DNA from: an uncultured archaeon
GTDB lineage: Archaea > Asgardarchaeota > Thorarchaeia > Thorarchaeales > Thorarchaeaceae
Assembly: GCA_964458565.1 (NCBI GenBank)
Contig: CAYWJO010000003.1
Coordinates: 78,675 to 142,674 of the forward strand
Length of the DNA stretch: 64,000 nucleotides
Reading direction: 5' to 3'
A program made the translations under genes and the position numbers. This document shows positions 18,041 to 46,173 of the stretch, one piece after another. The notes beneath the pieces are model-generated. The model made no database searches, was not told the DNA's origin, and saw only the letters and a list, made by a program, of their open reading frames with translations. Every line of letters starts with the position of its first letter. Within the stretch, counting starts at the first letter, position 1.

Positions 18041-21000
18041 CTATGTATCAGTTATATCTGTGTCTTCGATACCCATACTTTTCAGGAGTTCTTGAACAAG
18101 GTCTCTTGGGAGTTCACGAGCCTGCTCCATGATAGTTTCAATCTCATGTGCTGGAACTCCTCGACGAACAAGATCCATTCTGAGTTCTTCAAGCTCAAAC
18201 ACGCTCAATTGGTCAGAGTCAGATGGGTGTTCTAATTCCTCACGTAGTTTAACTCTTGGATCAACAGCATCTTTGGGTTTGATCATAGGAGGAGGTGTTT
18301 CATCAGCGTCGAAGACTCCGGGTTCGGATGGTTCATCGATGACAAATTCCTCGCCCTCTTCAATTGTGCGAAGTCTGCCCTGAGCTTGTTCCTCGACTTC
18401 CTTGAGGATTGTATCTAAGCCTTTTCCTTCACGTCGGGCAGCTCTTATTGCTTCCTGCTGTATAACCTCCTTAACGAAGGCAGCCTGTTCACTAATCTTC
18501 ATCTTGGAGATGTCAGCCTTGAATTCATCAAGCTCTTCTTGACTTAGATTGGTCAGTATCGATAATTGAATCAGAAGCTCACCAATCTCAGGAACCTCAA
18601 CTAAAATGGATTCCCCAGGGAGTTGGTCAGGTTTTCTTGTTATTTCCAGACTTGCCATGGTATCATTGAACAAGTCAGCTACTAGCTGTTGGCGTGTCTT
18701 GGCTTCAGAAATTGGGGCTGGAACTTTACCCTTCCTCATTGTCTTAATCTGACCATTGATCTGCCGAAGACGCTTGGGAATGCTGTAAACACGCGTCCAT
18801 AGTCCTACTACTACAATTAGGATGAGAAGTACAGGGAATGCAATTGGTACATATGTAGAAATCATAACATCAATCTGTGTGGGATTGGCAAAAACCTGAA
18901 CTGATGGAATGGGATCAATATAATAATTCTCAATGCTTAGAATCAGAGTCAATGACGAAGTCTGCTGACGCTTAAATATCTCCAAGAGTGGTGCTTGAGC
19001 AGTAAAGGTAACTCGATATCGTCCAGGAATTGAGAGCTCTTCAATTTCTTTAATGGCAACATACTCATTATTGCTGCTGGTAACAGTGAAGTTAGCTCCT
19101 GTAACGCCATTTCCATTATGTGTGGGCCAAGAATCAGTAAGTTGGAGGATAATGTATCCGTCCTGTCCATATTCCAATATTGCATATGAATCCACGATAT
19201 CTACTGTGGTAGGAATCTTGACTATTTGAAGGTCAAATCGTATATGAGATAGACTCCGGTTCTCTAGCTTAATTGAAACATCAAGAGTGAATGTTGCATC
19301 ATTCTGTGGAACCCCACCAGTACTATTGAACAACCATGCATCTAGAGTGTTGAAAACAAATCGATAGTAGCCATCACCCACATCTACCAAAGTTATGTAA
19401 GTAATTCCAAGATAAGATCCAAAGATGTACGTTGAATTCGTCTGAGCATCAGAAATTCCTCCGATAAATCCATCAGAGTCATCAATATCATTGTAGAAGA
19501 AGAGTATCTCAGCGGAATCGCCAATTGGTACTTCTAAGTTTAGTGGATCTCCCACATATGTTGTCGAAACATTGAGATCTGTTGGAGTTTCTTGAATTAT
19601 GAGATCAATAAGTGCACTACCATCTTGGAAGTTTTCTTTCTCAAATTTTATTTCAATTGAGTATCGCCCTGGACGGAGTAGAGTTGTGTCAACATATACA
19701 AGATATGTCCCACTACCCAAATCAAGAGCCTCTGTAGCTGGTAAATTAGTGATTGTGATTGTAACCAAGGTGTTGGATTCATTGACTCCTCTATTGAAGG
19801 GAATGTCCCAATATGTGAAGTTGAAATACCCTTTCCATCCCCAGAATTTCTCCTGGCCACTTGGACGTCTGACAGTTGTCAGAATACGCTTGACTGTAAG
19901 AGTAAGCGATGTAGCGGAGTTTCCATAGACATCATCATCAGGATTGGCGCGTATACTTATGCTCCATATGCCAGTTCCAATTCTTGTTGTGTTGAATAGA
20001 ACCGAGTAGGTTCCATTTCCAATATGAGTGAAATTACCACTATCACCAGTTTCCGACAAGTACCAATATACCCAGGCTTCTGTTATGTTTTCAGATATAT
20101 CAGGAGCTGTGAGTAAAACAGTGAAGTTTACAAATTCACTGTAAACCGCACTCACATCTTGACTTGTATCACCAATAAAGGAAAGACGAGTCCTGGTTTC
20201 CTCGATGAGCACCTTAAGGAGGCTTGTTGCGGGATTATAATTTGTGAAAGTTGCTAGTATTCTAACATCATACGTATCTGGATTCTGCACTGTTGAGGAC
20301 CCAGAAGGAATAGTGACATTGTATCGACCAGGAATTCCAGTGTAGAACATATAATAGATATCGTCACCATCAAATCCAACGAATGTTACCCTCACATTTG
20401 TGACATATTCATCAAGTATAGGTATAGCATTGTCAAGGTCAATCAAGTCGATGCTAATATTCAACCCAGCACCGCGACTAATAGTTACTAGTACATCAGG
20501 AGGATCAACAAGTTCAATATCAGACGCAATAGGTTGTATAATTAATGTGATAAAAGCAATTGCAACTTGATAGCGATCCCGTCTAGCTTCGATTCTTATT
20601 AGGTATGTTCCTGAATCACCAAAACTCGCATCAATACTTGTTGAATATATACCTGTACTGAGAGGATCTGTAAGATTTCCAGATGCAAACCCAGGTACAA
20701 CCCAGACTACTGTTGCGCCAGATGTTTCATTCCCATAGAGATAGCTCCAATAGGTGACCGAAAAGGATCTGGATTCCTTCCATGGAATTATGATTGTATC
20801 GATTGATGTAGTGAGGTAGGTTAAGATTTCACGAATTGTACCGGTGAGAACCACTCGCGATAGGTTCCCATAAAATGGTTGTAATGACGGATTCCATCGA
20901 ATATTCAAATCAAAGAGGTAGTCACCAGGATTCGTTAATGAGAGCGAGCTGACATTGATTGTATATCTACCCAAATCTGCACCAGATCCTTCAGTTATCC

Positions 21001-46173: not shown

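Follow-up and report, generated by a model that had tools for sequence, protein, structure and literature searches.

What are the two giant genes that occupy much of a 64,000-nucleotide stretch of DNA from an uncultured archaeon of the Thorarchaeaceae (Asgardarchaeota; GenBank assembly GCA_964458565.1, contig CAYWJO010000003.1, positions 78,675 to 142,674), and do they form a system with the small genes around them? We refer to this whole stretch as the window and to the two genes as A and B. A model that saw only the letters and a list of open reading frames (ORFs), the sequence-only reading below, had taken the pair for paralogous LamG/immunoglobulin (Ig)-repeat surface proteins of adhesin- or receptor-like design, lying in a dedicated cell-surface interaction locus that might be undescribed. 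Our best explanation, which we hold to be probable as a whole, is that A and B are two ancient paralogues in a Thorarchaeota-centred Asgard family of giant type-I membrane glycoproteins.

A and B lie on the minus strand, cover 26.4 kb together and are 1.75 kb apart. Both reading frames are uninterrupted, as the sequence-only reading had stated: the window translations contain no stop codon in the 9.6 kb of A or the 16.8 kb of B. The start of A at M33 ('MRRSIFLG...') agrees with the starts of its orthologues and gives a protein of 3160 residues beside the 5599 of B, so that the sizes and the extent of about 26 kb given earlier stand as well. Blastp likewise bore out the proposed relationship of the two proteins, which on these alignments are collinear paralogues with 28–45% identity: A100-1085 aligns with B908-1888 (44.6% identity), A785-2290 with B2383-3897 (37.7%) and A1450-3182 with B3829-5595 (28%). 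B contains an extra DUF2341/LamG module, B544-873, that aligns with A272-626 (34% identity, E 1e-38). Ten A-type orthologues from other genomes are complete and uninterrupted at 3136-3184 residues, all with a signal peptide and all collinear with A throughout. They confirm, far beyond chance, that A is a real and intact gene, and their intact, full-length collinearity suggests that A-type proteins are under purifying selection. Two collinear relatives of B, P0162 (5048 residues) and P0180 (5543 residues), are also intact.

The domain order proposed from the letters alone (signal peptide, DUF2341, LamG, Ig-like arrays, one transmembrane helix and a conserved tail) was recovered with Pfam, AlphaFold2 (AF2), Foldseek and a hidden Markov model (HMM) of the repeats. 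The HMM searches that had been suggested for Laminin_G_3 and DUF2341 both gave matches above cut-off, in A and B respectively. Laminin_G_3 (PF13385, of the ConA-like lectin/glucanase clan) covers residues 424-607 of A with 43 bits against a cut-off of 27.6, and DUF2341 (PF10102) covers residues 1117-1177 of B with 32.2 bits against 23.4 (E 1.5e-7). A has no DUF2341 match of its own at E ≤ 0.01 in Pfam; its homologues carry PF10102. Beyond these two domains there was no Pfam or NCBIfam match in either protein, including in segment scans at permissive thresholds (Pfam E ≤ 5, NCBIfam E ≤ 1).

An AF2 model of A57-1100, based on 27 homologues (pLDDT 84), is wholly beta and runs from N-terminal beta domains through the DUF2341 sandwich and a jelly roll of ~245 residues to sandwiches of ~100 residues that begin at ~635. 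The SxDxxAPAG motif picked out by the sequence-only reading lies at this onset of the sandwich array. Foldseek matched the remainder of the A model to chains of macroglobulin (MG), Ig and fibronectin type III domains (E 1e-10 to 6e-13). The macroglobulin arrays of A2ML1, C3, C4, C5 and ECAM came top, and the matches include the neck of the GhpA grappling hook, NCAM2, protocadherins and gp210. Their TM-scores were low, as expected of a chain of domains strung like beads. A repeat HMM, built iteratively on A, B and 18 relatives, resolved 21 domains in A (650-2924) and 36 in B (1453-5313), each of ~108-109 residues, which in both proteins fill the entire stretch between LamG and the transmembrane helix. 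Eleven closely similar units of ~100 residues lie at ~1600-2680 in B, and three units of A are especially similar to each other. We conclude that A and B have a head of lectin-type fold on an Ig/MG-like rod.

The B-specific N-terminal head (residues 26-541) had no match in Pfam, NCBIfam or the Protein Data Bank (PDB). Among the 18 homologues listed for it, 17 are significant, eight bear DUF2341 and/or Laminin_G_3, and all 12 with a named source come from Thor, Sif or unclassified Asgard metagenome-assembled genomes (MAGs); the last, weak match (E 4.2e-5) bears a Cadherin Pfam domain. A DNRLRE/CBM-like assignment of this head was rejected, as neither NCBIfam, Pfam nor the PDB supports it. A neighbour-joining tree of the last 600 residues was poorly resolved and star-like. 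It did not separate A-type from B-type clades, and its only usable grouping joins B with the head-bearing giants of loci L007, L070 and L072.

Both proteins begin with a hydrophobic signal segment, and the only other hydrophobic helix in each lies near the C-terminus; 244-266 residues follow it, of which the first 40 are net positive. The ectodomains are acidic (net charge per 100 residues −6.6 in A and −7.5 in B) and nearly free of cysteine (two in A, six in B). Against composition-preserving shuffles, N-x-S/T sequons are enriched in both, with 67 in A where 35.8 ± 5.2 are expected (z = 6.1) and 90 in B where 58.7 ± 6.6 are expected (z = 4.8); the tails hold two (A) and one (B). An acidic, cysteine-poor, sequon-enriched ectodomain with a positive juxtamembrane segment is the signature of a type-I extracellular glycoprotein. 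The profiles thus predict, for A and B alike, export by an N-terminal signal peptide and anchoring by one C-terminal transmembrane helix.

The start of the cytoplasmic tail is the most conserved part of the A-type proteins. Its first 100 residues have a mean pairwise identity of 0.65 in a set of 11 such proteins, above every other 100-residue window and above the 0.29-0.58 of the ectodomain; between A and B, the tails are 53% identical and the adjacent ectodomain 28%. An alignment of 25 sequences over the full tail (A, B and 23 homologues; alignment A1) has 31 invariant columns. In A, a basic juxtamembrane helix (SIPKRLRQING...) is followed by a helical core, an acidic linker and a C-terminal three-helix motif. 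In the AF2 model of the B tail, the transmembrane helix runs on into a long basic juxtamembrane helix (SVPKRLRQINGQIKALRKGKxPKP), and a disordered acidic/proline linker separates a compact four-helix core (pLDDT ~90; ELLIQLSILTNLS..ELDEFKADISKM..SEQAAFVKEVI.QEAIRAARR) from a terminal three-helix bundle (LSxFExEELRxxLxxRGVPxHEIDTIxEQAxxLPRELVDELVKSL). A and B both carry the features that mark the family: the transmembrane helix, the SVPKRLRQING motif, the ELLIQLSILT...SEQAAFVKEVI core and the LSxFExEELRxxLxxRGVPxHEID motif.

The terminal three-helix motif (~50 residues) occurs once in A and in B, in four tandem copies in several relatives and, in two copies, fused to a UppS-type cis-prenyltransferase in some proteins (repeated or fused forms: P0216, P0217, P0151, P0173, P0177 and P0277, from the exhaustive profile search described below). 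This pattern suggests that the motif may be an independent, mobile interaction module. The tail itself had no Pfam match at E ≤ 5 and no NCBIfam match at E ≤ 1. PDB sequence profiles, searched with the whole tail and with its 50-residue C-terminal motif, gave only non-significant or compositional matches (a SAP-like stretch of Mu gp35 at E 0.32; a helix-loop-helix of the polycystin-2 EF-hand and designed repeat proteins at ~1e-3), and we therefore dropped an unconfirmed impression of a SAP/HeH-, UBA- or death-domain-like fold. We conclude that the tail is an undescribed conserved domain pair.

How widespread is the family? A profile of the tail recovered 104 proteins through a word index and, in an exhaustive search of 1.84 billion cluster representatives, 378 at E ≤ 1e-3, with full tails on proteins of up to 5543 residues; the named members are overwhelmingly from Thorarchaeota. 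Scanning one genome per species, we found 72 loci in 57 species-level genomes, nearly all Thorarchaeota, with two or three loci in several of these genomes and tandem giants at eight loci. Distant relatives in MAGs of Hermodarchaeota, Odinarchaeota and Lokiarchaeota and in the cultured Lokiarchaeum ossiferum share the last ectodomain, the transmembrane helix and the juxtamembrane region. The L. ossiferum homologues are NEF87_000608 (3420 residues, with a DUF2341-like N-terminus) and NEF87_001536 (2289 residues).

Some public relatives appear truncated or frameshifted, which would fit the proposal that such ORFs are pseudogenes in decay or artefacts of assembling repetitive DNA. However, six of the eight short or frameshifted relatives examined contain 100-N gaps, directly at the truncation point in L056 and L062 and between differently framed matches in L006, L012, L014 and L032. 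The other two are L047, a long-read MAG with frame changes and no N runs, and L030, a 4.6-kb contig without gaps. Even two 'complete' Thorarchaeota chromosomes, CP070761.1 (L062, gap at 8816-8915) and CP070658.1 (L056, gap at 7213-7312), have such a gap inside the giant gene, leaving the last 632 and 1231 residues, respectively, joined to upstream genes that are unrelated. Apparent 'stand-alone tails' and forms with a short ectodomain (these two and P0054) were accordingly set aside as artefacts of 100-N gaps or contig ends. The gaps inside giant genes mean that the family is systematically truncated in assemblies and annotations; routinely broken in public MAGs and 'complete' chromosomes alike, these genes are under-annotated. 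The DNA-level repeats are old and diverged, with no tandem or long repeat left and at most 71% identity between A and B over 300 nucleotides. Together with the stop-free frames of both window genes and the ten intact orthologues of A, this makes decay, which the sequence-only reading had named as a possible undoing of its claim, or misassembly barely credible as an account of A and B.

What might such proteins do? An adhesin- or receptor-like role, as proposed earlier, is still the most reasonable reading of the architecture. We think it probable that A and B are long glycosylated surface fibrils for binding, coupled through their tails to a cytoplasmic partner. In tandem Ig arrays, each domain adds 4-5 nm. 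On that assumption, A and B would stand out from the single membrane as glycosylated fibrils with extended rods of ~100 nm (A) and ~170 nm (B). The LamG-type heads at the membrane-distal end could bind glycans, particles or partner cells, and would be presented in a lineage that probably lacks an ordered S-layer. The conserved tail would dock to a conserved partner in the cytoplasm and thereby serve anchoring, sorting or signalling. Cryo-electron tomography of L. ossiferum shows a membrane without an S-layer that carries unidentified 'complex surface proteins' (PMC9834061) and thin densities that bridge membranes (PMC9834061; bioRxiv 10.64898/2026.02.13.705702), and S-layer lattice modelling failed for Asgard candidates (bioRxiv 10.1101/2024.05.28.596244).

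Several points weigh against binding fibrils. For the whole family, surface location, glycosylation and binding are predictions from sequence, and expression is presumed. The LamG fold is not confined to lectins and occurs in protein-binding contexts too. The estimated lengths presuppose that the rod is extended and, because no homologue of the tail was detected, the case for a cytoplasmic partner is argued from conservation. Variability is frequent among adhesins; the A-type ectodomain, near-constant in length and uniformly conserved at 40-58%, suits a structural spacer or coat no less well than an adhesin.

The main alternative is therefore a structural envelope coat, an S-layer substitute or glycocalyx-like canopy in which A and B would act as a fixed-height spacer or protective layer and not as specific adhesins; we regard it as unlikely, though a serious contender. 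It would account for the almost invariant length of the A-type proteins (3136-3184 residues) and the even conservation of their whole ectodomain, and archaeal envelope glycoproteins typically have a C-terminal transmembrane anchor and enriched sequons. An ordered S-layer, which such a coat might replace, is lacking in Asgard cells (PMC9834061; bioRxiv 10.1101/2024.05.28.596244), and the last ectodomain resembles the S-layer Ig-like domain 4uj7, in a weak and non-significant match (E 1.7). Yet no S-layer family was matched in Pfam and NCBIfam scans of the whole proteins and their segments, nor was there an HMM match of the S-layer or pseudomurein kind that the sequence-only reading had foreseen as a more ordinary identity. 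At 3-5.6 thousand residues, the proteins are also far larger than S-layer proteins usually are. Lectin-fold heads at the distal tip, two or three divergent paralogues per genome with different heads and a conserved cytoplasmic tail of 250 residues, which a passive coat would not need, likewise count against a coat.

A bolder idea takes A and B as part of an Asgard-specific transmembrane adhesion-receptor system, in which lectin-tipped fibrils would contact partner cells or substrates, and the nearly invariant four-helix core of the tail and its three-helix modules, present four times over in some relatives, would connect this contact with a machine in the cytoplasm such as the actin cytoskeleton, ESCRT/membrane remodelling or signalling. 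We consider it speculative and rather doubtful. If true, the closest relatives of eukaryotes would possess a prokaryotic analogue of the adhesion receptors of eukaryotes, and the 'complex surface proteins' observed on Asgard cells would gain a molecular identity. Asgard surface proteins are thought to mediate syntrophic cell–cell contacts in models of eukaryogenesis (PMC9834061), and the family described here is a concrete and very widespread candidate for such surface structures in Thorarchaeota. Its distant homologues in the cultivable L. ossiferum make function directly testable, and the conserved tail offers a handle for finding the intracellular partner.

Table 1. Positions in the window of A, B, their modules and the neighbouring genes named in the text (aa, amino-acid residues)
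Feature	Position	Strand	Basis or remark
Giant gene A	18041..27619	-	ORF of 3192 aa from first ATG; probable start M33 at 27523, giving 3160 aa
A signal peptide / N-terminal hydrophobic segment, aa 33-56	27452..27523	-	hydropathy scan; present in all 10 orthologues
A N-terminal beta-rich head, aa 57-269	26813..27451	-	homologous to B aa 908-1077 (blastp); all-beta in AF2
A DUF2341-like beta-sandwich, aa 270-357, motif FKYRKNITI...	26549..26812	-	AF2 strands 216-301 of model; homologues annotated PF10102; homology to Pfam-matching B module
A LamG / ConA-like jelly roll, aa 378-623	25751..26488	-	
A rod, 21 tandem Ig/MG-like beta-sandwich domains, aa 639-2924, start SLDASAPAG	18848..25705	-	iterated repeat HMM, AF2, Foldseek
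A transmembrane helix, aa 2925-2945	18785..18847	-	hydropathy scan
A cytoplasmic tail, aa 2946-3192	18044..18784	-	alignment A1, conservation profile, AF2 of B tail
A tail conserved helical core, aa ~3010-3083	18371-18592	-	alignment A1
A tail C-terminal three-helix motif, aa 3138-3183	18071-18208	-	alignment A1
Giant gene B	29374..46173	-	ORF of 5599 aa
B signal peptide, aa 1-25	46099..46173	-	hydropathy scan
B-specific N-terminal head module, aa 26-541	44551..46098	-	no known family
B DUF2341+LamG module 1, aa 542-873	43555..44550	-	blastp to A module
B beta-rich region, aa 874-1077, homologous to A N-terminal region	42943..43554	-	blastp
B DUF2341+LamG module 2, aa 1078-1430	41884..42942	-	Pfam DUF2341; 44.6% identity to A module
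B rod, 36 tandem Ig/MG-like beta-sandwich domains, aa 1442-5313	30235..41850	-	iterated repeat HMM
B transmembrane helix, aa 5315-5333	30175..30231	-	hydropathy scan
B cytoplasmic tail, aa 5334-5599	29377..30174	-	AF2, alignment A1, profile searches
B tail four-helix core, aa ~5398-5471, pLDDT ~90	29761-29982	-	AF2
B tail C-terminal three-helix bundle, aa 5551-5596	29386-29523	-	AF2
gcvH	27750-28232	-	between A and B
Zn-ribbon gene, 66 aa, CPxCG...CxxxxCG	28264-28464	-	between A and B
Rad51/RadB-like gene	28588-29355	+	between A and B
Orc1/Cdc6-like AAA+ gene	16821-17996	+	TIGR02928 77 bits against cut-off 181; no Cdc6 winged-helix match

Do the giants belong to a larger system? As the sequence-only reading had noted, gcvH, a Zn-ribbon gene and a RadB-like gene lie between them (27750-29355). 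Comparison across the family shows the same block next to giants elsewhere: downstream of the giant tail the order is <RadB-like, Zn-ribbon>, GcvH>, <Orc1/Cdc6-like, <FAD and CCG/Fe-S oxidoreductase, M28 peptidase> (arrowheads mark gene direction), and beside the tail a RadB-like gene is present at 46 loci, GcvH at 35, an Orc1-like gene at 33 and a Zn-ribbon gene at 32. At seven further loci a DUF2334-ThiI-GNAT-hydantoinase group adjoins the tail, and upstream of B lie genes for a DUF2334 protein, a histone, ThiI and a GNAT acetyltransferase. Two giants abut in eight relatives, and in the four of these loci that are long enough to show it (L031, L032, L044 and L055) the block comes after the second giant. 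Of the 72 loci, the window is the only one in which the block separates the giants. From this recurrent order we place the giants of Thorarchaeota in a fixed chromosomal slot within generally conserved synteny.

The proposal that the giants, the RadB-like ATPase, the Zn-ribbon protein, GcvH and the Orc1/Cdc6-like ATPase make up one dedicated system draws on this adjacency in many loci, and on the divergence of the RadB-like and Orc1-like proteins, which fall below NCBIfam cut-offs. Against it, the synteny reaches unrelated housekeeping genes (FAD/CCG oxidoreductase, M28 peptidases, ThiI and hydantoinase), the genes are convergent or divergent in orientation and not operonic, and the block does not keep one position relative to the giants. 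Near the L. ossiferum homologue, which is surrounded by unrelated genes, there is neither a RadB-like nor a GcvH gene; co-occurrence with these neighbours is lacking outside Thorarchaeota, which weakens the proposal further. A block that changes position in the window and is absent beside the Lokiarchaeum homologue does not support a dedicated multi-gene system, and we consider one improbable. The conservation of the gene neighbourhood, which the sequence-only reading had put up for testing, stood in part, the block being kept beside giants in 32-46 loci but between them only in the window, and its dedicated cell-surface locus gave way to general synteny. As far as shown, the small neighbours are context and not functionally tied to the giants.

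These neighbours have features of their own. The RadB-like protein (28588-29355, plus strand), of the RecA superfamily, passes the Pfam Rad51 model and misses the NCBIfam cut-offs for RadA and RadB by a wide margin; at many of the 46 loci that carry such a gene, it is convergent with the 3′ end of the giant. A 107-residue plus-strand ORF at 28171-28494 was rejected as the Zn-ribbon gene, as it lacks the cysteine pairs found in the product of 28264-28464 on the minus strand. The Orc1/Cdc6-like protein is the most conserved product of the neighbourhood, at 69-79% identity across nearly all full-length Thorarchaeota matches (with one outlier at 60%), and its gene might mark a replication origin or have another role. 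In L. ossiferum (L076; CP163304.1, 750078-780340), NEF87_000608 lies directly downstream of a gene for an Arf-like small GTPase, with genes for a Ser/Thr kinase and Cdc6 ~5 kb away; an Orc1/Cdc6-type gene near giants in both Loki and Thor may be a coincidence.

The histone-fold gene upstream of B (47268-47504, minus strand, 78 residues) lies between the ThiI and DUF2334 genes and is also called on matching metagenome contigs. The ThiI protein of the window recurs without any difference in JGI 3300031360 and 3300031585 and in SRR9710542. At 9490-11472 and 11594-13603, both on the minus strand, are tandem paralogues of 660 and 669 residues. The product of 11594-13603 matches Pfam Peptidase_M28, and that of 9490-11472 has no Pfam match and weak NCBIfam matches to MtsD/CglD (cell-cohesion, thrombospondin-type-3-like) and the aminopeptidase LapA. 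In 16 Thorarchaeota loci, one M28-like gene ~5-8 kb downstream of the giant is the match for both, and the two may be another surface-protein pair. A 778-residue protein (57375-59711, minus strand) has weak EAP30/Vps36-family (E 8e-6) and CarboxypepD_reg matches, both just below Pfam cut-offs, and could be an Asgard fusion related to ESCRT-II; its gene adjoins an SPFH/flotillin gene (59812-61146, minus strand). Five consecutive ORFs at 563-4880 (111-346 residues, on both strands) have no Pfam match.

Could the pair have arrived on a mobile element? Aloposons integrate at tRNA genes downstream of their giants, have four consecutive upstream genes that include a MinD/ParA-like ATPase, and encode tandem giants of 3000-6000 residues (PMC8813620). 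A and B are tandem proteins of this size class, and tandem giants of Thorarchaeota have been reported as distantly homologous to one aloposon giant (PMC8813620), so that the pair might be the cargo of an aloposon-like element, as in Otus and Ephialtes of Heimdallarchaeum. In the 64-kb window, however, ARAGORN found no tRNA gene and Rfam gave no match at all. The window genes include no integrase, transposase or ParA, the four-gene upstream set with its MinD/ParA-like ATPase is absent, and the window contains neither long DNA repeats nor flanking direct repeats. Without a tRNA gene, integrase or flanking repeats, the locus is not aloposon-like. The GC content of the giant genes equals that of the rest of the window, and 57 species-level genomes share this slot. 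We conclude that A and B are native chromosomal genes in a conserved slot and not a mobile element; mobile cargo is very improbable.

Parts of this family have been glimpsed before. Wu et al. (2022; Nat Microbiol, PMC8813620, Extended Data Fig. 7) showed tandem giant genes in Thorarchaeota MAGs that are homologous to each other and distantly to one Otus/Ephialtes giant of Heimdallarchaeum aloposons. Phylum, tandem arrangement, mutual homology and size class all agree with A and B, and the two sets, matched by description, almost certainly represent one gene family. Domain architecture, topology, tail, distribution and function of the Thorarchaeota giants are not covered there (PMC8813620). Otus and Ephialtes themselves resemble A and B in being tandem Asgard genes for 3000-6000 residues, but the aloposons lie at tRNA genes with their ParA/MinD-like upstream set, whereas A and B occupy a fixed chromosomal slot. 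A survey of huge proteins (PLoS Comput Biol 2024, PMC11573180) found an N-terminal Laminin_G_3 to be the commonest architecture among archaeal proteins above 5000 residues, three of them in Thorarchaeota, with a function 'not understood'. These proteins have one or more N-terminal Laminin_G_3 domains, as do the giants here; the survey is at the level of Pfam and does not include the DUF2341 pairing, the rod of 21 or 36 domains, the transmembrane helix or the conserved tail. The suggestion that the system is undescribed is thus half right: tandem giants and LamG-bearing huge proteins were already on record (PMC8813620, PMC11573180), and in the literature searched we found no paper describing the tail, the Asgard plan of DUF2341, LamG, rod and transmembrane helix, or the L. 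ossiferum homologues. Literature searches on Asgard with DUF2341 and on the L. ossiferum locus tags and accessions returned nothing, and those on Asgard, LamG and surface only unrelated papers. New from our analysis are the full anatomy, the definition of the tail, the breadth across 57 species-level genomes and the homologues in a cultivable organism.

SPEARE proteins of Nanohaloarchaeota/DPANN combine protease and nuclease domains and occur in ectosymbionts. Compared by description, they are like A and B very large archaeal surface proteins proposed to act in cell–cell interaction; secreted proteins with LamG domains form a separate entry for that lineage (PMC9563170). The alpha-2-macroglobulin/complement C3 family shares the MG-domain fold with A (Foldseek E 1e-10 to 6e-13); neither A nor B contains the thioester motif CGEQ or has an A2M match in Pfam. 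Protocadherins, NCAM, contactins and neurexins are like A and B at the fold level only, at 6-16% identity and with unrelated tails. UniRef names the L. ossiferum homologue 'Cadherin domain-containing'; in A and B there are no cadherin Ca2+-binding motifs and no Pfam Cadherin match (E ≤ 0.01 for whole proteins, E ≤ 5 for segments).

RTX-type adhesins are built of BIg repeats. Giant bacterial adhesins of this kind and GhpA of Aureispira (PDB 9flp, a Foldseek match) share with A and B a long rod of Ig-like domains of ~100 residues and distal ligand-binding modules. The bacterial fibrils are secreted or anchored by type I or type IX secretion systems or an outer-membrane plug, often bind Ca2+ and have no cytoplasmic tail. 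A and B, by contrast, are predicted to be Sec-type type-I membrane proteins with a conserved cytoplasmic domain, and their likeness to the bacterial fibrils is one of fold.

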